A DNA stretch of 63,027 nt, counting the filler, from Anaerolineae bacterium (GTDB lineage Bacteria; Chloroflexota; Anaerolineae; Epilineales; Epilineaceae): NCBI GenBank assembly GCA_029262755.1. It is 7 parts of 7 records of this genome, joined end to end, with 100 filler letters (N's around TTAATTAATTAA, not from the genome) between each part and the next. Parts side by side here need not be neighbours in the genome. Positions count along the whole stretch, not along the records: positions 31,042 to 35,436 come from JAJCYU010000097.1; 6 more parts are not named here. One strand, given 5' to 3'. The first letter of the stretch is position 1. The number at the start of each line of letters is the position of its first letter. Of the stretch, positions 1,635 through 54,599 are shown in pieces. The position numbers were made by a program, and so were the translations under genes. Below the pieces are notes generated by a model, which made no database searches, was not told the DNA's origin, and saw nothing but the letters and a program-made list of their open reading frames with translations.

Positions 1635-2915
1635 ATGACGGACGGATTCGAGTTTCGCGTTGAGCAAAAAGAGGGCGACGCGCGTCGCGCAGCCTGGGCG
1701 ACGCCGCACGGCGTTGTGGCGACGCCTGCCTTCGTGGCCGTCGGAACGTCGGCGGCTGTGAAGTCCATGACGCCGGGCGATCTAAGCACCGTTGGCCAAC
1801 AAGCTGTCTTCGCAAACACCTACCACCTTGCTCTTCGGCCAGGAGCGGATCTGGTGGCCCAGATGGGCGGTCTCCACCGATTCATGGCCTGGGACAAACC
1901 GATCTTCACCGACTCCGGGGGCTATCAGGTCTTCAGCTTGGGGGCGAGCATCGAGCAGAACGTGGGCAAGATCGGCGTCTTCCCCGGCGATTCGCCGCCG
2001 CACAGGGGCCCAGGCGCGAATGGTGATCGCTCCATGGTGCGCATCGACGAGGACGGGGTTTCGTTCCGCAGCCACCTCGACGGCAGCGCGGAGCGGCTTA
2101 CGCCGGAACGATCGATTGCGTTGCAGCGGCAGCTAGGGGCGGATTGCATCCTTGCATTCGACGAGTGCACGTCACCCCTGCACGACGAGGCCTATACGCG
2201 GGAAGCCGCGGAACGAACGCACCGGTGGGCGCGTCGCAGCCTGGACGCGTTCCACAGTTCTTCCCCACCAAACGGCCTCCCCCAGGCACTCTACGGAATC
2301 GTCCAGGGGGGATGGTTCGAAGGGCTTCGCATGGAGAGCGCGGATGCCATCGCGGCCATGGAGTTTGATGGGATGGCGATCGGCGGCTCATTGGGGCGCA
2401 CCAAGGCGGATATGCGACGTGTGCTCGAGATCACGATGCCGGCGCTGCCGGAGGCGCTGCCGAGGCATCTGCTCGGGATCGGGGAGGTGCCCGATATCTT
2501 CGCAGCAGTCGCGCGCGGAGTCGATACCTTCGATTGTGTCGCGCCCACCCGCAACGCGCGCAACGCGGGGTTGCTCATGCGGTCGCTCGACGGTGAAGCC
2601 CTCCCCAAGTTTCGATCCAATCTGCGAAACGCACGCTTCGCGCGTGACGAGCGGCCCGTGGATGCAACATGTCCGTGTACGCTGTGCACGAACCACACCC
2701 GTGCGTATGTGCGCCATCTGTTCAAGGCGGAGCCTCTGCTCGCGTGCCGGCTGGGTACGTTGCACAATCTCACGTTCATGAATCGCATGATGTCGGACGT
2801 ACGCGCGGCCCTCGCGGAAGGCCGTTTCGAGCAGCTGGCCATCGAGTGGCTTGGGCAGCGTGAGGCAGAGATCCTGCTTCAGCCGGCGCCGAGAATCGAT
2901 GCGTCGATACCCTAG
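1635..2915 (+). CDS. tgt: tRNA-guanine transglycosylase
   Basis: NTYHL, TDSGGYQVFSL, AFDEC, GIVQGG, HLLGIG, DTFDCVAPTRNARN and Zn site CPCTLC...H. Start reassigned to ATG 1635. Confidence 0.95.
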   Translation: MTDGFEFRVEQKEGDARRAAWATPHGVVATPAFVAVGTSAAVKSMTPGDLSTVGQQAVFANTYHLALRPGADLVAQMGGLHRFMAWDKPIFTDSGGYQVFSLGASIEQNVGKIGVFPGDSPPHRGPGANGDRSMVRIDEDGVSFRSHLDGSAERLTPERSIALQRQLGADCILAFDECTSPLHDEAYTREAAERTHRWARRSLDAFHSSSPPNGLPQALYGIVQGGWFEGLRMESADAIAAMEFDGMAIGGSLGRTKADMRRVLEITMPALPEALPRHLLGIGEVPDIFAAVARGVDTFDCVAPTRNARNAGLLMRSLDGEALPKFRSNLRNARFARDERPVDATCPCTLCTNHTRAYVRHLFKAEPLLACRLGTLHNLTFMNRMMSDVRAALAEGRFEQLAIEWLGQREAEILLQPAPRIDASIP

Positions 2916-2924
2916 GGGGGCCGC

Positions 2925-3554
2925 ATGAGTACGTCGCAGGAACCATCGCAGGGGAACCGCAGCGCCAGCCGGATGAGCGCACTCGTCACCGCAGCGATTC
3001 TCATCAATCTGGCGGGCGGCGAGATCGTGAGCGTATTGCGGTTGCCCGTCTACGGAGATAGCGTCGGCACCGTCGTGGCCGGCGCGCTCGGCGGTCCGTT
3101 GACCGGCGCATTCGCGGGCGCGCTGACCAATATTGTTTGGTCGTTGCTCGGACGGCCGGGGGCAGCCGCGTTCGCCATCACAGCCGCTGCGATCGGCATG
3201 ATCGCGGGGATCAGCGCTCAGCGTGGCTGGCTACGCACACCGCCCCGCGTGGCTGTCACCGGCCTAATCACCGGTGTGCTGGCTGCCGTGATCAGTGCCC
3301 CGATCGCTACCTACGTCTATGGTGGGGTAACCGGCGGCGGCACGGATGCGGTCGTGGCCTTCTTCCGCGGAATGGGTGCGAGCATCCTCGAGGCCAGCCT
3401 CGGTCAGGGCATCGTCAGCGACCCGCTGGACAAACTCGTCACCTTTCTCCTTGCCTGGTTGGTCTTGCGCGCCATGCCGCGCCACTTGTTGCTGCGCTAT
3501 CCGGGCGGCACGCTCTTCGATCGCGCTGATCCCGAGGCCATCGTCGACGCGTGA
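2925..3554 (+). CDS. ECF transporter substrate-binding (S) component
   Basis: About 200-aa hydrophobic protein with LPVYGDSVGTVVAGALGGP and DPLDK motifs, directly followed by T and A components. Confidence 0.85.
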   Translation: MSTSQEPSQGNRSASRMSALVTAAILINLAGGEIVSVLRLPVYGDSVGTVVAGALGGPLTGAFAGALTNIVWSLLGRPGAAAFAITAAAIGMIAGISAQRGWLRTPPRVAVTGLITGVLAAVISAPIATYVYGGVTGGGTDAVVAFFRGMGASILEASLGQGIVSDPLDKLVTFLLAWLVLRAMPRHLLLRYPGGTLFDRADPEAIVDA

Positions 3555-4357
3555 AATCGGAGTCGCTTGCCCGCACCGTTTGGCACCCCGCCACCAGCCT
3601 CGCCCTAGCGCTCTGCATCGCCCTCGTCGCGTTCGTCCCATGGGCCGCGATGTCGCACGGACGCTTCGCGCCCTTGTTCCTGACCCTGATACCGGGGAGC
3701 CTCGCGGTCTGGGCGGGACCGCCTGTATTCGCTCGGTGGCTACGAGGCATGGCGATTGCATGGCTTCCATTGGCCGTGTCGATGCTGCTCGTGCACGGCC
3801 TCTTCTACCCGGAGGGCATCGATGTCCTGTGGTCCTGGGGCTGGCTGCGCGTGACACGTGAGGGATGGCTGTTCGGCGCGGGTCTTGCCGCCCGCTTCGC
3901 ATTGGCCGTGTCGGGGATCGTCCTCGCGTCCGCCCTGCATTCTGCGGCCGATCTCGCCCGGGGGCTCGAGCAGTCAGGGCTCCCGCTCCGATGGACCTAT
4001 CCGCTGCGTGCCACGATCGGTTTGTTGCCCGCCGCGCGCCGCAGGGCGACGGCCATCCAGGACGCCCAGGCGGCGCGCGGGCTTGCTGCGGGGAGCCTGT
4101 TCCAACGCGTCCGAGCCTTGCCGCCGCGGATCGTGCCGTTCGCGGTCGGACTACTCTCCGAGGCGGATGTGCGTGCCCAGGCACTGGCCCTTCGGGGCAT
4201 GGATAGCGCCGTCCGCCCGACGTCCATCGCGCCGTGGACCGACTCGTCGCGCCAGCGGATGCTGCGTCGTGCGTTGATCGGCGGTGGGCTGCTTGTCTTG
4301 GTGCTGAGCCATGCCCTGCTGGCGGGCATCGCGGTGCGCGCCCTGTCCGGCCGCTGA
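3551..4357 (+). CDS. ECF transporter transmembrane (T) component
   Basis: CbiQ/EcfT-like, with two ARG-type motifs (AQAARG, ALALRG). GTGA overlap with the S gene. Confidence 0.85.
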   Translation: MKSESLARTVWHPATSLALALCIALVAFVPWAAMSHGRFAPLFLTLIPGSLAVWAGPPVFARWLRGMAIAWLPLAVSMLLVHGLFYPEGIDVLWSWGWLRVTREGWLFGAGLAARFALAVSGIVLASALHSAADLARGLEQSGLPLRWTYPLRATIGLLPAARRRATAIQDAQAARGLAAGSLFQRVRALPPRIVPFAVGLLSEADVRAQALALRGMDSAVRPTSIAPWTDSSRQRMLRRALIGGGLLVLVLSHALLAGIAVRALSGR

Positions 4358-4380: not shown

Positions 4381-6209
4381 CACGAAGCGACCGCTCGACA
4401 CTGCTTGTGGTCGACGGTTTGCACTATCACGTGCCGGGACGTGCTTCGGCCGTGGTAGACAACGTCTCGTTCGCGCTGCAACCGGAGCAGATCTGCATTC
4501 TTCTGGGCGCGGAAGGATCCGGCCGCAGCAGCCTGCTCGCGGCCTGCGCCGGGCTTGCGCCTGCGCTGTTGGGCGGTCGCGTCGACGGCGAACGATCGAT
4601 GCCTGAACCCTCCGGACGGATGCACTGCGACCGCGTGCCGCTCGAACGGTGGACCCGTGAAATGAGCCTCATCCTGGACGATCCTGCTTCCATGCTTTCG
4701 GGTGCGCGTGACACGGTGCGTGAGGAAGTCGCCTTCGGTCTCGCGTGTCGCGGCACGGAGCGTGTGGCGATGGCCCGGACGGTCGACGCTACCCTGGCCG
4801 CGCTTGCGATCGAGCACCTCAGCGCGCGCGATCCGAGCACCTTGTCGGGCGGCGAAATGGCGCGCGTCGTGCTGGCCGCCACGCTCGTGGTCGACCCCCA
4901 CGTGCTGTTGGTCGACGAGGCGGAAGCATCGTTGGATGCCGCGGGTAGGGAGCTCTTCGTCGCTGCCCTGGCTAGGCGCGCCGCATCGGGAAACGCGGTC
5001 CTGTGGGCGCCGTCATCGGTGGAACACGCATCGTGGCCGGACGCGGGGCTTCGCGGGGAACGAGCCCCAAGGCCGGCCGAGCTCGCGACGCCAGCCCAAA
5101 GGGCAAAACCGAATCATCCGACGGCAATACCGGCCTGGGCTGACGGCGGCCTGCTGCTGGCAGGGGGAAGCTGCGTCGGGCGGGCCTCTGGGGACGCATG
5201 GTGGCAGGGTCTCCACCTTCCCAGGGCCGGGGTGAATGCGCCGCTGCTCGCGCGGTGGCAACAGCGGGCTGCGGCGGATCGCAGCGCCTCGTCCAGCCTC
5301 GGTCCCGTCCACGTATACAACGCCGAGGATTCCGGTTCCGGCATGGGACGAGCGCGGTTGCGAACCGACCATTTGTCGCAGAGCCTAGTCGCCCTTGCGC
5401 CGGAACGCAGCGGTGGCCTGTACGTTCGAGACCTGCGCGCCGAACGCGATGGCGTCGGCGCGGTCGTTCACGACGTTTCGTTCGACGTTGCGCCTGGTGA
5501 GGTGCTGGCTGTGATCGGAGCCAATGGCAGCGGCAAGTCGAGCCTGTTGCAGGCACTGCTCGGCCTCGGCCCGCGGTCCGCGGGCCGGATCCGCGTCGGA
5601 GGCCGGACGCTGGACGGCCGCGAAACCGCGCTTCGAGCGCGGGAAATCGGGCTTGTGTGGCAACGGAGTGAGGATCAACTCTTCGCGCGCAGCGTCTCGT
5701 TGGAGGTCGGCTTCGGACCCCGGGCCCTGGGGGGGCGCGGAGAGCGTCTCGCAGAGACAGTCGCCTGCGCCTTGCGCGCATCCGGTCTGGAGCGCATGGC
5801 GGACACGCATCCGTTGGACCTTGGGCGCGGCGCTCGCCGCCGCGTAACGATTGCCGCCGCGCTGGCAATGCGAACGCCGGTGCTGGCCCTCGACGAGCCC
5901 GAGCGCGGTCTCGACGAAGAGGGCCGGACCTGGCTCGTCGCGCTGCTGCGGGGTCTTGCGGACAGCGGCCGGACCGTCGTCGTGGCGTCCCATGACATGG
6001 ACGTCTTGGGACGCGTCGCCGATCGCGTCCTGGTCATGGCCCATGGCGTTGGAATCGCCGACGGACCCGCGCGGCGGATCCTGCGCGATCGAGAGCTCCT
6101 TGCCACGCACGGGCTGGCCGCGGCTCCGGCTGTCGTACTCGGCCAAGCGCTCGCCAGCGATCCGGTTCCCTTGCACGGGGATGCCTTGTTGGAAGCCGCT
6201 CTTGGGTAG
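4371..6209 (+). CDS. ECF transporter fused double ATPase (A-A')
   Basis: Domain 1 has GAEGSGRS, LSGGE and LLVDE. Domain 2 has GANGSGKS, LALDEP and SHD. Start taken at ATG 4371. Confidence 0.85.
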   Translation: MVGPRSDRSTLLVVDGLHYHVPGRASAVVDNVSFALQPEQICILLGAEGSGRSSLLAACAGLAPALLGGRVDGERSMPEPSGRMHCDRVPLERWTREMSLILDDPASMLSGARDTVREEVAFGLACRGTERVAMARTVDATLAALAIEHLSARDPSTLSGGEMARVVLAATLVVDPHVLLVDEAEASLDAAGRELFVAALARRAASGNAVLWAPSSVEHASWPDAGLRGERAPRPAELATPAQRAKPNHPTAIPAWADGGLLLAGGSCVGRASGDAWWQGLHLPRAGVNAPLLARWQQRAAADRSASSSLGPVHVYNAEDSGSGMGRARLRTDHLSQSLVALAPERSGGLYVRDLRAERDGVGAVVHDVSFDVAPGEVLAVIGANGSGKSSLLQALLGLGPRSAGRIRVGGRTLDGRETALRAREIGLVWQRSEDQLFARSVSLEVGFGPRALGGRGERLAETVACALRASGLERMADTHPLDLGRGARRRVTIAAALAMRTPVLALDEPERGLDEEGRTWLVALLRGLADSGRTVVVASHDMDVLGRVADRVLVMAHGVGIADGPARRILRDRELLATHGLAAAPAVVLGQALASDPVPLHGDALLEAALG

Positions 6210-7199: not shown

Positions 7200-7810
7200 C
7201 GGCAGCGATATTGGGCGATGGCGTTGAATCCGGCCAGCGCGCGGGACCTGTGTCTCCGGGGCGCTCTCCGGGCTGGCAACGCGTACTCCGTATTGTGCTC
7301 CCGATAAGCGTGTTGCTCGTGGGATGCAGTGGAAGGTCCGTGAGCCCGCTGCCATCTCTTGCGGACGGCACGGCCCCCGCGGATATCGAGGCGATCCCGC
7401 AGGGCAACGACGCGGCGCGTGCTCCGGAGTCCGCTCCACATTCGACGACCACGGAGACCGCCCCATCGGGGTCGGCCGTCGCGCGCGAAGCAGCGATCGA
7501 TGTCGTCGACGGCTCGGCAAGGGCGGGGCCGGCTGGCCTACACGTAGCCCAACCGCAGGGCGGGCCCGCGACCTGGGCGCAGGCGCTTGCGCCGTGGGCC
7601 GGGGTGCCAGGCATGGATATCGATGCCACGCTCGAGCGTTGGGCGGCCGCATCAGGAGCGCCCGCGCCGCTGCACCGGTGGTCCTTGAATCGGGAAGGTA
7701 GAGGCTTCTGGGTGGGAATCGTCCACGATTCGTTGGAGGGGGCGGGAGTCGGAGGAGAGCGAGCCGACCTCGCGGCGGCGACCGTTTTGGTCCTCACGCA
7801 GCCGGCTCCC
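7196..7810 (+). CDS. Putative lipoprotein, partial (runs into spacer)
   Basis: ATGA overlap with the trmK stop; VLLVGC lipobox-like sequence. Confidence 0.5.
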
Positions 7811-7910
7811 NNNNNNNNNNNNNNNNNNNNNNNNNNNNNNNNNNNNNNNNNNNNTTAATTAATTAANNNNNNNNNNNNNNNNNNNNNNNNNNNNNNNNNN
7901 NNNNNNNNNN
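7811..7910. other. Artificial contig spacer
   Basis: N44-TTAATTAATTAA-N44 linker with stops in all six frames. Confidence 0.98.
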
Positions 7911-17993: not shown

Positions 17994-18093
17994 NNNNNNN
18001 NNNNNNNNNNNNNNNNNNNNNNNNNNNNNNNNNNNNNTTAATTAATTAANNNNNNNNNNNNNNNNNNNNNNNNNNNNNNNNNNNNNNNNNNNN
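17994..18093. other. Artificial contig spacer
   Basis: N/TTAATTAATTAA linker. Confidence 0.98.
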
Positions 18094-22800: not shown

Positions 22801-22900
22801 NNNNNNNNNNNNNNNNNNNNNNNNNNNNNNNNNNNNNNNNNNNNTTAATTAATTAANNNNNNNNNNNNNNNNNNNNNNNNNNNNNNNNNNNNNNNNNNNN
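22801..22900. other. Artificial contig spacer
   Basis: N/TTAATTAATTAA linker. Confidence 0.98.
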
Positions 22901-30941: not shown

Positions 30942-31041
30942 NNNNNNNNNNNNNNNNNNNNNNNNNNNNNNNNNNNNNNNNNNNNTTAATTAATTAANNN
31001 NNNNNNNNNNNNNNNNNNNNNNNNNNNNNNNNNNNNNNNNN
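30942..31041. other. Artificial contig spacer
   Basis: N/TTAATTAATTAA linker. Confidence 0.98.
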
Positions 31042-31714
31042 GCTCAGCGCACCCCCCGGAAGCCCGATCGAGGGGGAAGGACCCTGAGCGGGGGCAACCG
31101 TTGGCACATTGAGCCGGGGGCGGGGGCCGCCCGTGTGCTATCGGTTGCCCATAGTTCGGGCGTGCATTGGCCCATAGGTTGCCTGCCCCCTGCCCCCGTG
31201 TGCCCCTCACGTGCCCCGCCCCCACGGGCACGCCCCAGCAGGCCGCCCGCCCCTGCCCCCATAGGCCGGGCACACGGCCGCCCCCATGCGCCCGCCCCTA
31301 GGGGATACGCCCCCACGGGCACGCCCCCTAGACCCGCCCCCACGGACTCGCCCCTAGGCGGTTGCCCCCATGCCCGCGCCCCCTCACACGCGCGCCCCCG
31401 GCCGCCCCTCGCCAGCCCCCGCCACGTCGCGCAAGGCGACGGCCCGCCCCCTGATTCGGCCCCGCTGGCGTCGTCAACATGGCGTGAACAATCGCCCGGC
31501 ATTGTTAACGTGAACAAACCGTGAAACTGGCGCAATGGGGTTTTCCGGGGCGACATACCGGGCAGGGGCTAAAGCCCGCCAGCGGGCCGCTATGGGCGTT
31601 CTAGGGGCATGTGGCATTTTAGACACAACTAAAGGCACACTATAGACGCCCGCAACGCCCCGGAAACGCTGGAATCGGCCCCCGCCCGCATGGGGCCGCA
31701 TAGTGTGGCAACGG

Positions 31715-31742
31715 TTGACTATGCGGCGGCCGCCCCTATAAT
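31715..31742 (+). promoter_or_regulatory. Near-consensus sigma70 promoter for the phage-like ORF array
   Basis: TTGACT (31715-31720), 16 bp, TATAAT (31737-31742); AAAGGA RBS before ATG 31792. Confidence 0.75.
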
Positions 31743-31791
31743 CGGGGGCAGGGGCAAGCCCCCGCAACCGCTATGGAAAGGAACTTTAGCA

Positions 31792-33003
31792 ATGCCTAGC
31801 AATCAAACCGGCCCCGACGCTGAAATGTTCGCTATCACGGCCGACTCGGCCCTTCAGGTTTTCACGTTCGAGTCGTCCGGGGACGCTTATGACGCGGCGC
31901 AATGTTGCGACGACATTAAAACGGGCGCGGCCCTTATCGTCGAAAGCGAGTCGGCCGTTGCGCTCGCATGGGCTTGGCCGGTTGCCGTCACGGCCGCCCT
32001 TAGCAACTTTCACGCGCTGGCAAACGACACGCGCGACGACGCGGCCGCCACGCTGAAGGATATGGGAGTCGACGACGACACGGCCCGCCGGGCCGTCGCT
32101 GAAGCCCGCAAGCGGGGCTTTGCTATCGCCCCCGCATGGGCCGCGCTCTTCCCGGCCGAAGAGCCCGCCCCGGCGGCCCCCGTCGTCACATTGACGGCCG
32201 ACGGCACGGACTCGGCAACGGCCGATTGGTCCGATGCTTCCGGCCGCTTCCACGTTTGGTTCTACCGCCGCACGCAACGCGGCATGATGGAAACCACTAA
32301 CGCCCGCGTGCCCATCGGCCCAATCTGGATTCAGGAGTCCGTGATTTACAAAAACCCGCCCCTCGCCAGCGACGGCCGCCCGCTCAAACCAGACGCCCCG
32401 GGCTACTTCGACACGCGGCTATTGGACCTTAACGCCAAGGCGAACGCCAGCGCGGCCGCCCGCATTCGCGAACTCGCAACCCCCGAGGCCCTTGACGCCC
32501 TCACGGCCGCCTTTGTGGCCGAACGTGACGCCCGCAACGCGGCGGAAAACCGGGCCGCCCGTGTGGCCTATCTGGCAAAATGCGTTGCCGCTATTCAGGC
32601 CGCCAGCGCGGACGATTTGGGCGCGGCCGTGCTGGAGTCCAGCGTCGAAACGGCCCGCGCGGCCGAACTCTTGCGCATGGCTGGCGAGAAAACCGAACGC
32701 CTCGCGGCCGCCCCCGTGCGTGCCCGCCTTGCCGAGATACGGAACGCGGCCCGCGTGATTCACTTCGCCAGCCCGGAAGAGCTAACGGCCGCCGCGCCCC
32801 CTGCCAAGGCCGAACGGACGGACGAGTCGGGCCGCCGCTATATCGACATGACTCCATCATGGGCGGGCGTGTTGCCGGTCTTCATGGCGGCACTAACCGA
32901 CGGGAACGCCACGGGGCAGGCGGCCGCCCGGACGGAATTGCATCGCATGGCGAGGGCGGCCGACTCGGCCGTGCTAGTCGCCTCAATCGCCAAGGGGGCT
33001 TGA
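31792..33003 (+). CDS. Hypothetical phage-like protein (403 aa, apparently composite)
   Basis: Long ORF with RBS directly downstream of the promoter; no recognisable enzyme motif. Confidence 0.75.
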   Translation: MPSNQTGPDAEMFAITADSALQVFTFESSGDAYDAAQCCDDIKTGAALIVESESAVALAWAWPVAVTAALSNFHALANDTRDDAAATLKDMGVDDDTARRAVAEARKRGFAIAPAWAALFPAEEPAPAAPVVTLTADGTDSATADWSDASGRFHVWFYRRTQRGMMETTNARVPIGPIWIQESVIYKNPPLASDGRPLKPDAPGYFDTRLLDLNAKANASAAARIRELATPEALDALTAAFVAERDARNAAENRAARVAYLAKCVAAIQAASADDLGAAVLESSVETARAAELLRMAGEKTERLAAAPVRARLAEIRNAARVIHFASPEELTAAAPPAKAERTDESGRRYIDMTPSWAGVLPVFMAALTDGNATGQAAARTELHRMARAADSAVLVASIAKGA

Positions 33004-33005
33004 TC

Positions 33006-33266
33006 ATGGCCGGGATTTACAAGGCACGCGCGGCGGACTTCCGGCCCCTGTTGACGGACGAAACGGCCGCCCTTCAGGCGTTCGCCGATGCACACGGCCG
33101 GAGGTGGCGCGACGAACTCTGCAACGTCTATTGGTATAACGCCCGCATTTGGCAGGGCCCCGTGCCCTGCATGGGGAACGAGTTGCACGGGATTCGGAAT
33201 GAGTTCGGGCCGTCATGGCTCTATGACGTGTGCAAGGTGAAACCGGCCCCGAAGGCCGCCCGCTAA
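33006..33266 (+). CDS. Hypothetical phage/plasmid-type protein (86 aa)
   Basis: MAGIYK...ALQAFADAHGRRWRDEL...IRNEFGPSWL; starts 2 bp after the upstream stop. Confidence 0.75.
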   Translation: MAGIYKARAADFRPLLTDETAALQAFADAHGRRWRDELCNVYWYNARIWQGPVPCMGNELHGIRNEFGPSWLYDVCKVKPAPKAAR

Positions 33267-33322
33267 GGACGAAACGCGGGGCCGCCCCCGCGTCTCACGG
33301 TTAGGCCGTGACTGACGAGTCC
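33263..33322 (+). ncRNA. Type II hammerhead ribozyme with loop-I pseudoknot
   Basis: GGAC(33267-70), GAAA, CGCGGGG/CCCCGCG stem III, UC cleavage site (after C33294), UCACGG/CCGUGA stem I, CUGACGA(33312-18), GUCC. CUAA(33263-66) can pair with loop UUAG(33301-04). Confidence 0.92.
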
Positions 33323-33357
33323 AACGCCCGCCAGCCCCTCAAAATGGAGTCTTGATC

Positions 33358-33669
33358 ATGTCCGCATTCCCCACGCCAAACGCGGCCCGCGCCCGCCTCG
33401 CCAGCCCCGCCCCTATCACGGCCGGGGCCGCCCGCCTCGCCTTCGCCCGTCTCGGCATGGCGTTGCGGGTTACAGAGTTCGGCGAGTTCCGAGTCAATTT
33501 CCAGCGCGGGGAAGAGGCGACGGCCGCCTATGAGTCCGACTTGCCGAGCGCTATTGACACGGGACTCGCCATGCTTGCGCACAAGGCGCGACTTTCTGCC
33601 GAGCTTCGCACCATCGGACTCCCGGCGGCCGTTGCCGAGCGGGAAGCCGTTGCGGCCCTCACGTTCTAA
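33358..33669 (+). CDS. Hypothetical phage-like protein (103 aa)
   Basis: GGAG RBS at 33346-33349; EFGEFRVNF...ATAAYESDL. Confidence 0.7.
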   Translation: MSAFPTPNAARARLASPAPITAGAARLAFARLGMALRVTEFGEFRVNFQRGEEATAAYESDLPSAIDTGLAMLAHKARLSAELRTIGLPAAVAEREAVAALTF

Positions 33670-33682
33670 GGGAGTCGGACCG

Positions 33683-33736
33683 ATGCAAGACGGCTTTCAC
33701 CTGAATATCGCAATCCGCACTAGCCGCGCCGCCTGA
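33683..33736 (+). pseudogene. 17-codon ORF with good RBS, possible truncated gene remnant
   Basis: GGGAG then MQDGFHLNIAIRTSRAA*, just before an AT-richer gene. Confidence 0.3.
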
Positions 33737-33763
33737 AACACCAAACCGACAAGGAGTCGACCT

Positions 33764-34207
33764 ATGAAAATAGATCGTGCATTGAAAATACGTAACGAGA
33801 CTAAGGCTCTTCTAGCCGACACGTTTAACTCCGCCTTTTATTGGCGACCGACTTCGGAAAAACTGGAAAAACAAAGGATCGTAGTTTTGGGGAAAATTTC
33901 GTCAAAAACGCCATATTGGGTGCTCGCCTATCTAGATGGATTCTGGTCCGCAAAGATCGACTCTTTATATAAGTCGACTCTTGTTTTTGGTGGCTTCGTC
34001 GATGGGGTTTTCTATTCCACAAATCGGGCCCGGCCGGACTATTACGAAAAACACGGAATCAGCTCGGCGGATTATGCAGACAACGGCCGTGTTAGCGGCC
34101 GTGGTCACTATTGGCCGGAAATGCCCGGCGGCCGTGACGGCGTGAAGCCGTGGTTTATCCACGCCACGCGCGCCGATTTCATCGAGTATCAGGAGTCGGG
34201 ACAATGA
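33764..34207 (+). CDS. Hypothetical protein (AT-richer than neighbours)
   Basis: AAGGAG RBS; 147-aa ORF. Confidence 0.7.
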   Translation: MKIDRALKIRNETKALLADTFNSAFYWRPTSEKLEKQRIVVLGKISSKTPYWVLAYLDGFWSAKIDSLYKSTLVFGGFVDGVFYSTNRARPDYYEKHGISSADYADNGRVSGRGHYWPEMPGGRDGVKPWFIHATRADFIEYQESGQ

Positions 34208-34566
34208 ACGGTTTTGCATTCTATGCGGCCATGCCTTCGGACCGTGGAAGCAAGAGCGCAAGCAAGCGCTATCCCTTCCAGCCGTGGACTCGCGCGACAC
34301 TGAAGGCAATGGCCGCGCGCGGCGACAAAGCCGACGTTGTGGCGGTCTACAGTGACCGGGCTCTATCCTTCGTTTCGCGCGGGGAGGTCATGCGGGAAGC
34401 CGTTGCCGGGATATTCGAACAATTGGACTCGCCGTGTTTCAGCACGGCGGTTTCTGCCGAATGGCTGCGCACCAGGACCGTGCGGATTGACGAGTCAACG
34501 GCCCGGCGCTTGCACCCAGCTTTGTTCGAATATCTGGACTCGGCTCACTGGCCTTGCCGAGCGTGA
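34204..34566 (+). CDS. Hypothetical phage-like protein (120 aa)
   Basis: AGGAG RBS and ATGA overlap; C-terminal RIDESTARRLHPALFEYL. Confidence 0.7.
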   Translation: MNGFAFYAAMPSDRGSKSASKRYPFQPWTRATLKAMAARGDKADVVAVYSDRALSFVSRGEVMREAVAGIFEQLDSPCFSTAVSAEWLRTRTVRIDESTARRLHPALFEYLDSAHWPCRA

Positions 34567-34624
34567 CGCCCTCGCGGCCCTCACGTCCTAGCCCCCTGCC
34601 CCCCAAAACCAAGGAGTCTTGATC

Positions 34625-35407
34625 ATGAAAACCGTTTTTTCTGGCGACATGCTCTTTCACGTATGGGCACAAAACACGCAATCCGAAGGCCGCCGGTCCG
34701 ACGGCCGAGTCTACTTTGACGGCCCGACTCTCTACTCATACGGCCGCCATTTCGCCCTAGGCCACATCATGCCGGACGGGGCGACTCTCTTGAACGCTGA
34801 TTCCTATTCCGTCAGTACGTCAAAGCATCAAAGGCAAACCGCACGGGCCGCGCGCGGCCGGACCTATTCCGTGCCCGCCCTCACGGACCTTGTGCACGGC
34901 TTTCAGTTCCGAACGGACCCGACGGCCGCCCGCGACTCCATCGTCCGCCACATCACGCAACACGCCCTTGCCATGCCGGACGAGTCGGCCGTCTACCTGC
35001 TAACCATCGCCAAGCGGCCGCGCGCCTGGCCTAGCATCAAAGCGGCGGCCGAACGGGCAAAGGCAAAGGCCACCAAGGCCGCCAGGGCGTGCGATATTGC
35101 CTGCCGAAAGGCAGACGTAGAACGCATGACGGCCCTAACCTATCGGGCGTTTTCGGACCTAGTGGCGGCCCGGCTGGAGTCCAAAAAATGGGGGCATTTC
35201 CCCACGGGCCGCGACTGGCCTAAGCATGAATACCGGAACGCCCGGCCGTCCGAAAACGCGGCGGCCCTCGCCCTTGAATTGCATCGCTTGAACGTCGCAG
35301 CAAAGGCGCATTGCGGGAAGCGCGCGCAAACCGTCCTAGCGGCCCGCCTGAAGGCAGTCCGCGGGCAGGCGCGGGAACTCGCCAAATGGGAATCGTATGG
35401 CGAGTAA
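34625..35407 (+). CDS. Hypothetical phage-like protein (260 aa)
   Basis: AAGGAG RBS; HVWA...YFDGPTLYSYGRHF...YSVSTSKHQ motif. Confidence 0.75.
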   Translation: MKTVFSGDMLFHVWAQNTQSEGRRSDGRVYFDGPTLYSYGRHFALGHIMPDGATLLNADSYSVSTSKHQRQTARAARGRTYSVPALTDLVHGFQFRTDPTAARDSIVRHITQHALAMPDESAVYLLTIAKRPRAWPSIKAAAERAKAKATKAARACDIACRKADVERMTALTYRAFSDLVAARLESKKWGHFPTGRDWPKHEYRNARPSENAAALALELHRLNVAAKAHCGKRAQTVLAARLKAVRGQARELAKWESYGE

Positions 35408-35436
35408 CAGGCATATTTCCGCCGCGTGAAACAGGC

Positions 35437-35536
35437 NNNNNNNNNNNNNNNNNNNNNNNNNNNNNNNNNNNNNNNNNNNNTTAATTAATTAANNNNNNNN
35501 NNNNNNNNNNNNNNNNNNNNNNNNNNNNNNNNNNNN
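35437..35536. other. Artificial contig spacer
   Basis: N/TTAATTAATTAA linker. Confidence 0.98.
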
Positions 35537-43417: not shown

Positions 43418-44401
43418 TCAGGGCGTGTAGGTTTCGACCGTTCTTTGGCCGGATGGATCGATGAACTCGAAGGTATAGGTGCCGTCGGCGATCGCGTACT
43501 GGACGGCGTACGTCCCGCCGTCGAGCGTGTACTGCAGTGAGAACGCGCCGGGTCCCGTCTGCGAGAACGCGGTGATCTCCGCGCCCCGCAGGGGTTCACC
43601 GGCCGGGCGAATCGGATGGGCGTTGGGCTGTGGTTCGACCTGCCCATCTCGATAGTCCACGACGCCCCGCATGCCACCGTTGATGTACGGATAGGTCTCC
43701 GTGGCGTGGTAGTGATAGCTGCCGTCGTCGTCGAAATGACCGTTGTACGCATCCAAACCAACGACGGGCGAGCCGTCCGCTTCGGTCAGGCCGTAGAGGG
43801 GAAATCCATCCAGCCCAAACGCAATGGGTTGATCCGCGCCGACTTCCTCCTGAAGATGGGTCGGCGCGATGTGATAGTGGTAGTCGTCGCCGCGACCGGT
43901 GTGCCCACCCCAATGGTCGAGCTCTCCGGCCAGATAGGCATCATCGCCACGGTTGTTGAGCGCATTGAAGATGGGCACCCCGTTGACCGCCAGGGCGATC
44001 GCTCCGCGAAACAGATCATCCCGGCCGGAGATCGGGTCATCCGACAGCTCGGGTACGAGCGGGATCCGCCATGCGTTGTCCCCCGTGTACGCCTGCGGGA
44101 GCGGAACCTGTTGCTGCCAGCTGACGATGCCGACCATCATATTGTGTGTTGCGGGCAGACCGTTCGATTCGACGATCGCGGTGTCCGGCGTGCAATCTGT
44201 CGTGGTGTTCTCGAGGAAGGCGTTGCACGGGGTCGAGGGCAGCGCGGCATCGGCCGATCCCTCATTCACGGCTGTCGTCGGTTCGGGGACGGCCGTTTCC
44301 AGGGCCGCTGTCGGTTCCACGGACTCCCGCGTTCCACACGCCGTGACGGCGACGAGCAACGCACCCTGCAACAGGACGTTCGCGCTTCGTCTCGTGTTCA
44401 T
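43418..44401 (-). CDS. YHYH-domain lipoprotein
   Basis: AVNGVPIFN, GRGDDYHYH, LDGFPLYG and LDAYNGH...YHYH. Confidence 0.85.
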   Translation of the reverse strand: MNTRRSANVLLQGALLVAVTACGTRESVEPTAALETAVPEPTTAVNEGSADAALPSTPCNAFLENTTTDCTPDTAIVESNGLPATHNMMVGIVSWQQQVPLPQAYTGDNAWRIPLVPELSDDPISGRDDLFRGAIALAVNGVPIFNALNNRGDDAYLAGELDHWGGHTGRGDDYHYHIAPTHLQEEVGADQPIAFGLDGFPLYGLTEADGSPVVGLDAYNGHFDDDGSYHYHATETYPYINGGMRGVVDYRDGQVEPQPNAHPIRPAGEPLRGAEITAFSQTGPGAFSLQYTLDGGTYAVQYAIADGTYTFEFIDPSGQRTVETYTP

Positions 44402-54499: not shown

Positions 54500-54599
54500 N
54501 NNNNNNNNNNNNNNNNNNNNNNNNNNNNNNNNNNNNNNNNNNNTTAATTAATTAANNNNNNNNNNNNNNNNNNNNNNNNNNNNNNNNNNNNNNNNNNNN
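54500..54599. other. Artificial contig spacer
   Basis: N/TTAATTAATTAA linker. Confidence 0.98.

Follow-up and report, generated by a model that had tools for sequence, protein, structure and literature searches.

A type II hammerhead ribozyme packed between a stop codon and the next ribosome-binding site in a phage-like gene array, and the phage sub-family to which it belongs

We describe here a type II hammerhead ribozyme at positions 33263–33322 (+) of a 63,027-nucleotide stretch of DNA (the window) from the Anaerolineae bacterium assembly GCA_029262755.1, together with a sub-family of phage hammerheads that shares its architecture. Its identity as a hammerhead, its conservation, and the covariation of its stems across the family are direct observations, and it very probably functions within the + strand transcript of a phage or prophage operon of early type. 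It is one more of the well-known and very abundant phage hammerheads, which number in the thousands. The window consists of seven contigs joined by N44-TTAATTAATTAA-N44 linkers (at 7811–7910, 17994–18093, 22801–22900, 30942–31041, 35437–35536, and 54500–54599), and genes on opposite sides of a linker are not neighbours. The ribozyme lies on the 4395 bp contig at 31042–35436 (G+C 0.645), between two genes transcribed in the same direction.

Read 5' to 3' on the + strand, the element opens with the flank CUAA (33263–33266), the last base of which, A33266, is both the third base of the upstream stop codon and an A that is conserved across the family directly 5' of stem II. It continues with the 5' strand of stem II, GGAC (33267–33270, positions 11.x), the core bases G12 A13 A14 A15.1 (GAAA, 33271–33274), the 7 bp hairpin of stem III (33275–33292, with CGCGGGG at 33275–33281 pairing to CCCCGCG at 33286–33292 around the loop CCGC), and U16.1 and C17 (33293–33294). 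These are followed by the stem I hairpin (33295–33311, with UCACGG at 33295–33300 pairing to CCGUGA at 33306–33311, 6 bp plus a U-G pair), the core bases C3 U4 G5 A6 C7 G8 A9 (CUGACGA, 33312–33318), and the 3' strand of stem II, GUCC (33319–33322, positions 10.x). An A33274–U33293 pair closes stem III, and loop I is UUAGG, in agreement with the family pattern U-N-A-N-G; its UUAG (33301–33304) is complementary to the CUAA flank. From the consensus position of hammerhead cleavage the scissile bond is predicted to lie 3' of C33294, 28 nt beyond the stop codon and with 63 nt between C33294 and the ATG at 33358. A sequence-only reading made earlier had listed the canonical core, stems I, II and III of 6, 4 and 7 bp plus the A-U pair, the predicted cut with its distances to stop and start, and a CUAA flank complementary to the loop that includes the TAA stop (33264–33266) of the frame ending at 33266; all of these were read directly from the sequence at the same coordinates.

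Acceptance criteria for the hammerhead core are given in the methods of PMC3088659. The window element has C3 U4 G5 A6 N7 G8 A9, G12 A13 A14, the A15.1–U16.1 pair, and H17, and the three core-adjacent pairs (C33270–G33319, A33274–U33293, and U33295–A33311) all form, with no mispairs next to the core. Stems I and III are capped and stem II is open, and the order GAAA, stem III, UH, stem I, CUGANGA is that of the type II permutation. The minimum free energy fold of 33255–33330 (ViennaRNA) is the same three-way junction at -30 kcal/mol; the energy itself is no better than that of shuffled sequences (z -0.79), the segment being G+C-rich.

A descriptor comprising the core, a stem I of at least 4 bp, and stems II and III of at least 3 bp each finds a single match in the window itself, and only one more turns up across 300 shuffles of the full window that preserve dinucleotides; when the observed stem lengths are required, none of the 300 shuffled windows has a site. 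We also constructed a covariance model (R1) from 12 hammerheads of unrelated IMG/VR contigs, with the window and its close relative left out. Run with filters off, R1 scores the ribozyme site at 62.3 bits (E 5.7e-15), the runner-up within the 63 kb window reaches 14.1 bits (E 0.11), and there is a single copy on the window's contig. Given the shuffles, the R1 score, and conservation with compensatory change in a relative (see below), the site is a genuine hammerhead and not a chance match.

The search with Rfam hammerhead models that the sequence-only reading had proposed as a check gave no matches in the window at gathering thresholds, and in E-value mode RF02276 reached 24.6 bits (E 0.0057 in a 301-nt search) against a gathering threshold of 37. 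The same model gives 17 matches in 19 related loci, all of them below 37 bits (range 26.1–33.6), and we therefore read the sub-threshold score as a limit of the Rfam model and not of the candidate.

All plausible genes of the ribozyme-bearing contig are on the + strand, as judged by reading of the open frames. The first (31792–33003, 403 aa from the ATG at 31792) matches phrog_22670 with its C-terminus (E 1.5e-08) and has no Pfam match. The gene immediately upstream of the ribozyme (33006–33266) codes for 86 aa, its TAA stop at 33264–33266 adjoins the ribozyme, and its product belongs to a conserved family with YWYNARIW and RNxFGPTWL motifs (alignment A1). Downstream, a 35-nt spacer (33323–33357) with GGAG at 33346–33349, 8 nt upstream of the ATG, separates the ribozyme from a 103-aa gene (33358–33669, ATG at 33358) that has neither a PHROG nor a Pfam match. 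Two genes of the contig have PHROG matches, both to PHROGs of unknown function; none has a Pfam family, and a blastn search of 31000–35500 against the phage collection gave no match. No convincing + strand terminator is present between the 86-aa and 103-aa genes. A promoter-like site, TTGACT-16-TATAAT (31715–31742, +), lies just upstream of the first gene with 11 of 12 consensus matches and is a candidate operon promoter; sites of this kind, which are matches to a consensus only, number two against a shuffle mean of 0.7. Transcription of the + strand would be expected from the orientation of the genes and from this promoter match.

Several other features of the window may be recorded here. A near-identical initiation cassette, (A)AGGAGTCTTGATCATG, occurs at three gene starts (32986–33011, 33338–33363, and 34605–34630), and the hammerhead precedes only the middle one. 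A 37-nt direct repeat (33632–33668 and 34554–34590, 86% identity) bounds a 922-nt segment that holds two genes (33764–34207 and 34204–34566); the G+C content of the window is lower in this part. The closest relative of the locus, L001, is without the segment and has a single copy of the 37-nt repeat, and the segment looks like a gene cassette inserted by recombination. Beyond it, a 262-aa protein (34619–35407) aligns only to the first 262 of the 365 positions of phrog_7247; the L001 homologue (2236–3888, 550 aa) spans the whole profile and the window copy is shorter, the contig stopping 29 nt past the stop codon of this gene. A scan of viral contigs with the 260-aa protein of 34625–35407 gave no relative.

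At the other end of the contig, the non-coding 650 nt contain four copies of a 20-nt repeat, CGCCCCCACGGGCACGCCCC, at 31217–31354 (85–100% identity), which may be protein-binding repeats near a genome end. The window contig and the independent contig L001 share a homologous first base (1–343 versus 1–327, 75.6%). A high-depth relative (677x) has 16 extra letters ahead of 31047 in its record, presumably a sequencing-adapter tail, which they resemble. The shared start, taken with these extra letters, suggests that the start of the contig is the physical end of a linear phage genome, some 2.2 kb from the ribozyme. The sole tRNA of the window, tRNA-Trp (CCA) at 44271–44351 (+), is on a contig other than that of the ribozyme.

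Relatives of the 86-aa protein were found in 48 other clusters, in 19 genome loci, and in 61 IMG/VR viral loci, with 80 of 188 confirmed metagenome stretches kept. The viral loci identify the gene, by homology, as a phage gene. On the kind of element and its setting the sequence-only reading is upheld: the type II hammerhead is intact, is carried by the coding strand, and lies between two co-oriented members of a phage-like gene set. Nearest among the related loci is L001, a MAG contig of 7.5 kb that is 82.6% identical from the 86-aa gene through the ribozyme to the gene after it. It has a hammerhead (L001a) at the orthologous place, directly following a TAG stop codon, and the stem III strands differ from those of the window by two compensatory double changes (CGGGGGC/GCCCCCG versus CGCGGGG/CCCCGCG) while stem I is identical. 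The 3' flank after stem II, AACGCCCGCCAGCCCCUCA, is also common to the window and L001a. A relative from a groundwater metagenome, met at a loose end at 33260, reads TAG-GACGAAAC and goes on with a stem III that differs from the other two.

L001 also contains a second copy (L001b) on the same strand, 2293 nt downstream and between other genes; its stem III is longer, and it shares stem I and the 3' flank with the first copy. Moreover, the 30-mer at 33297–33326 is a branch point, in the contig data, of two biofilm metagenomes that contain the window contig, with one branch leading to a 33-kb contig and one having an L001b-like flank; those metagenomes thus contain one or more additional copies with an identical stem I. 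Paired copies with identical stem I raise the question of whether two hammerheads of the same sense flank a block of genes that is excised as RNA and ligated, for example by an RtcB-type enzyme, into a circular or re-joined product, a possibility also raised in PMC3088659. However, the window's contig has one copy only, what lies between copies is ordinary protein-coding sequence that differs in identity from case to case, and the main text of PMC3088659 reports, as data not shown, that spliced or circular products were not detected. We consider such an excision module very unlikely.

R1 recovers hammerheads in only three of 160 loci with an 86-aa relative (two in L001, one in L043, and three in L147), and the descriptor agrees with R1 over these 160 gene-linked loci. 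A descriptor match in L118 was rejected as spurious, having short stems and long loops and not being recovered by R1. A MAFFT alignment of the seven gene-linked ribozymes (A2) misaligns the inner part of stem III and was left out of the counts. With 157 of the 160 loci lacking a hammerhead, the idea that the ribozyme is linked to this gene family was rejected; L020, L021, and L100, which carry close homologues of the 86-aa protein, have other genes downstream and no ribozyme. Prophage hammerheads are likewise not tied to a particular neighbouring gene (PMC3088659). This patchy occurrence, with close homologues lacking the element, and the sub-threshold RF02276 score could be taken to mean that the window copy is an inactive look-alike or a decayed relic without present function. 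Yet a decayed copy would be expected to show changes in the core, and here every core base is intact, the core-adjacent pairs are sound, the ortholog carries compensatory change, and the independent model R1 recognises the site at E 5.7e-15. A relic is therefore an extremely improbable explanation.

The other gene-linked copies are informative as to gene context. The L043 ribozyme starts at the stop codon of an exonuclease gene, which itself comes after an Erf-like gene, and the L147 cluster is near a replication initiator and a repressor-like gene. Given these neighbours, the label of an early-type operon is a reasonable one for the window locus by analogy.

Other structured RNAs were encountered in these loci. 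A fluoride riboswitch (RF01734, 45–46 bits, above threshold) is present at 5515–5576 in L010, L011, and L012, about 350 nt downstream of distant 86-aa-gene relatives in Sphingobium genomes, and a group II intron domain (RF00029, 46.7 bits, above threshold) at 7253–7367 (-) of L015, a Sphingobium MAG contig. L173, a viral contig with three type II copies, has a type III hammerhead match at 942–998 (+; RF00008, 31 bits against a threshold of 48.5), and different hammerhead permutations may thus coexist in one phage.

The wider family was collected by two exact-pattern scans of viral contigs in which the core and the stem II words were fixed and stems I and III were not demanded. The GGAC/GUCC scan returned at least 145 stretches with at least 160 distinct instances, and the GGUC/GACC scan at least 125 stretches with at least 133. 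Among the matches listed, stems I and III both form in 153/160 and 129/133 instances, respectively, and the members of the two sets, again among the matches listed, share a tight set of features. Stem I is a hairpin of 17–18 nt (6 bp plus a 5–6 nt loop) in 146/153 GGAC and 125/129 GGUC instances; the first base of loop I is U in 148/153 and 128/129, the third is A in 101/153 and 95/129, and the last is G in 112/153 and 105/129. An A directly 5' of stem II (position -1) is present in 148/153 and 128/129, and an A directly 3' of stem II in 110/153 and 98/129. The window fits every one of these features (A-GGWC, a 6 bp stem I with a UNANG loop, and GWCC-A).

The family alignment A4 (115 matches) is fitted to R1, a procedure that favours pairing, and with that leaning it has 99.1% of cells paired, compared with 65.3% in shuffles. 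Fifteen of its 17 pairs have double-sided changes, and the covariation score of 0.784, versus 0.147, is reached by none of 500 shuffles; when the partners are slid, pairing drops to 25–43%. Members also cluster within individual phages. A complete 41-kb phage genome with terminal repeats has three hammerheads within 1.1 kb, 1–2 kb from its end; a 58-kb viral contig has eight within 4.4 kb of its end, and a 53-kb viral contig has eight within 3.5 kb. In each of these records the hammerheads are on a single strand, one per intergenic gap.

The sequence-only reading had proposed a 4 bp pseudoknot between CUAA and loop I UUAG, and of this the first pair, A33266–U33301, stands as a family-wide feature but the other three pairs are not conserved. 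The base at -1 is complementary to the first base of loop I in 98% of instances among the matches listed, including three with a swapped pair (T with A); the GGAC set has three mismatched instances (C with A) among the matches listed, and these are also of differing architecture. Further out, at -2 to -4, the flank does not covary with loop I in the sub-family instances among the matches listed. A 5' flank helix of at least four pairs can be drawn in 19/153 GGAC instances among the matches listed, against a permutation mean of 11.6 and a maximum of 19, and in the A-U register such a helix is present in 5/146 and 2/125 members among the matches listed. In L001a the same loop needs a shifted register (CCUA with UAGG), and in L001b, which also has this loop, only two pairs are possible. 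An extended 5'-flank pseudoknot as a feature of the family was rejected on these counts and for lack of position-wise covariation beyond -1. Likewise, a pseudoknot of loop I with the 3' tail has at least four pairs in 8/153 instances against 12.0 expected (among the matches listed), and the 3' tail of the window, AACGCCCGCC, has no complement to UUAGG.

These patterns of conservation indicate that A33266–U33301 is probably a real tertiary contact and that the remaining three CUAA/UUAG pairs are probably fortuitous in the window copy. An A-U pair is among the contacts that join the loops of other hammerheads. A contact between the loop of stem I and the stem II side fits the non-pseudoknot hammerheads of section 7 of PMC3088659, with the difference that the A of the window comes from the 5' flank and not from a loop, since the stem II end of a type II hammerhead is open, and that this A belongs to a stop codon.

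Compared with the type II hammerheads of RF02276 and PMC3088659, the window element has the same permutation, open at stem II, and an identical catalytic core. The type II elements of PMC3088659 also occur in intergenic gaps of phage gene arrays, often with several flanking single genes. The consensus in PMC3088659 includes a pseudoknot of at least four pairs between loop I and the 3' tail, for which the window and its sub-family have no signal; the lack is not disqualifying because the pseudoknot is not obligatory: according to PMC3088659 most but not all type II hammerheads, and about 40% of hammerheads overall, appear to have one, and others must use different contacts or none. The published stem II is often 2 bp, whereas that of the window is 4 bp (GGAC/GUCC), and stem I of the window and sub-family is exactly 6 bp with a 5–6 nt U-N-A-N-G loop. 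Judged against the published consensus, the sub-family is marked by an A that is conserved 5' of stem II and is complemented by the U that opens loop I, and it appears to replace the published pseudoknot by this single conserved A-U match of the -1 base with the first base of loop I.

As to what the ribozyme does, we infer that it cuts in vivo, that the cut leaves the ends known from established hammerhead chemistry, and that expression is affected. Once transcribed, the 56-nt three-way junction would fold and cleave itself 3' of C33294, co- or post-transcriptionally. Upstream of the cut, the message would retain the 86-aa gene together with its stop codon and 28 nt of tail, which would finish in the G+C-rich hairpin of stem III and bear a 2',3'-cyclic phosphate. 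The other half would open at the stem I hairpin with a 5'-OH, leaving 46 nt to the GGAG and 63 nt to the ATG, and would carry the ribosome-binding site, the 103-aa gene, and the later genes. After the cut the two halves would be joined by the 4 bp stem II only and should part, which would leave the sequence ahead of the ribosome-binding site free. Judging by what is generally known of mRNA decay in bacteria, the hairpins and unusual ends could plausibly alter decay. The likely purpose would be to divide a polycistronic phage mRNA into separate messages, with stability and translation uncoupled.

The gene-by-gene splitting of phage operons by hammerheads was described in 2011 by Perreault et al. 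(PMC3088659), where tandem prophage hammerheads cleaved polycistronic transcripts of about 2 kb in vitro and one set did so in E. coli, and where the proposed role was the conversion of long phage transcripts into gene-length mRNAs. The operon-splitting role put forward in the sequence-only reading agrees with that proposal. A 2019 review (PMC6765202) still calls the purpose of phage hammerheads undetermined.

The position of the stop codon bears on a second claim. Among the matches listed, and counting only instances with a long open upstream frame, a stop codon lies at -6 to -2 of the first G of stem II in 83/133 (GGAC) and 76/118 (GGUC) instances, and at -2 (a UAG sharing its G with stem II) or -3 in 52/133 and 31/118. 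All seven gene-linked hammerheads (the window, two in L001, one in L043, and three in L147) have an abutting TAA, TAG, or TGA. The sequence-only reading had suggested gating by terminating ribosomes, in which a ribosome on the UAA at 33264–33266 covers A33266, stem II, and part of stem III, such that cutting occurs only when upstream translation is sparse or after release of the ribosome and is tied to translation of the 86-aa gene. Ribosome footprints of the usual size suggest that stem II and the first part of stem III would be sterically masked during termination. The frequency of close stops among the matches listed, the abutment in all seven gene-linked copies, and the fact that the last base of the stop codon in the window is the conserved A 5' of stem II all favour such gating.

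Against this, the following start codon lies just as near, with medians of 22 nt (GGAC) and 20 nt (GGUC) after stem II among the matches listed, and the ribozyme fills the whole of a minimal gap; compaction into a minimal intergenic gap thus accounts for the abutment as well as gating does. The stop peaks at -2, -3, and -5 follow from the A that is needed at -1, which can come from any of UAA, UGA, and UAG-G. In about a third of instances among the matches listed (50/133 and 42/118) the stop lies outside -6 to -2, and the extended pseudoknot that the ribosome was meant to melt is not conserved. The term 'stop codon' does not occur in the main text of PMC3088659, and titles and abstract openings from 2018 on yielded no report of stop-codon abutment or gating of phage hammerheads, which is not proof of absence. 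Overall we consider gating by termination unlikely, and favour the simple splitting of the operon.

A broader idea is that the ribozyme, the abutting stop, and the ribosome-binding spacer form one selected, portable 'gene junction', in which the last base of the stop is the A of the tertiary contact, a ribosome on the stop transiently disables the ribozyme, upstream translation times cleavage, and the cassette spreads among intergenic gaps by recombination. Identical 30-mers are common to the two L001 copies and the branch point in the metagenome graph. We hold this idea to be a speculative and rather unlikely one; were it true, the timing of cleavage would be set by translation of the upstream gene.

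A further comparison is with the ribozymes of RNA viruses that promote translation initiation (PMC13725137), which are similarly self-cleaving and placed just 5' of a coding region, and whose cutting or folding is connected with translation of the ORF that follows. As described there, these are mostly type I hammerheads in the 5' UTRs of eukaryotic RNA viruses, whereas the window element is encoded in DNA, is of type II, and sits, with a Shine-Dalgarno sequence of its own, in the operon of a bacterial phage.

What makes the window ribozyme and its relatives worth keeping in view is the combination of a sub-family that Rfam under-scores, a single A-U contact, and near-zero spacing to both stop and start. 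Routine annotation likely misses the sub-family, which RF02276 under-scores and which is present in more than 270 viral stretches among the matches listed. Hardly a base is to spare between the ribozyme and its two neighbours, the stop codon before it and the ribosome-binding site after it, and this tight packing provides a defined and testable setting for the effects of phage hammerheads on translation and mRNA stability.
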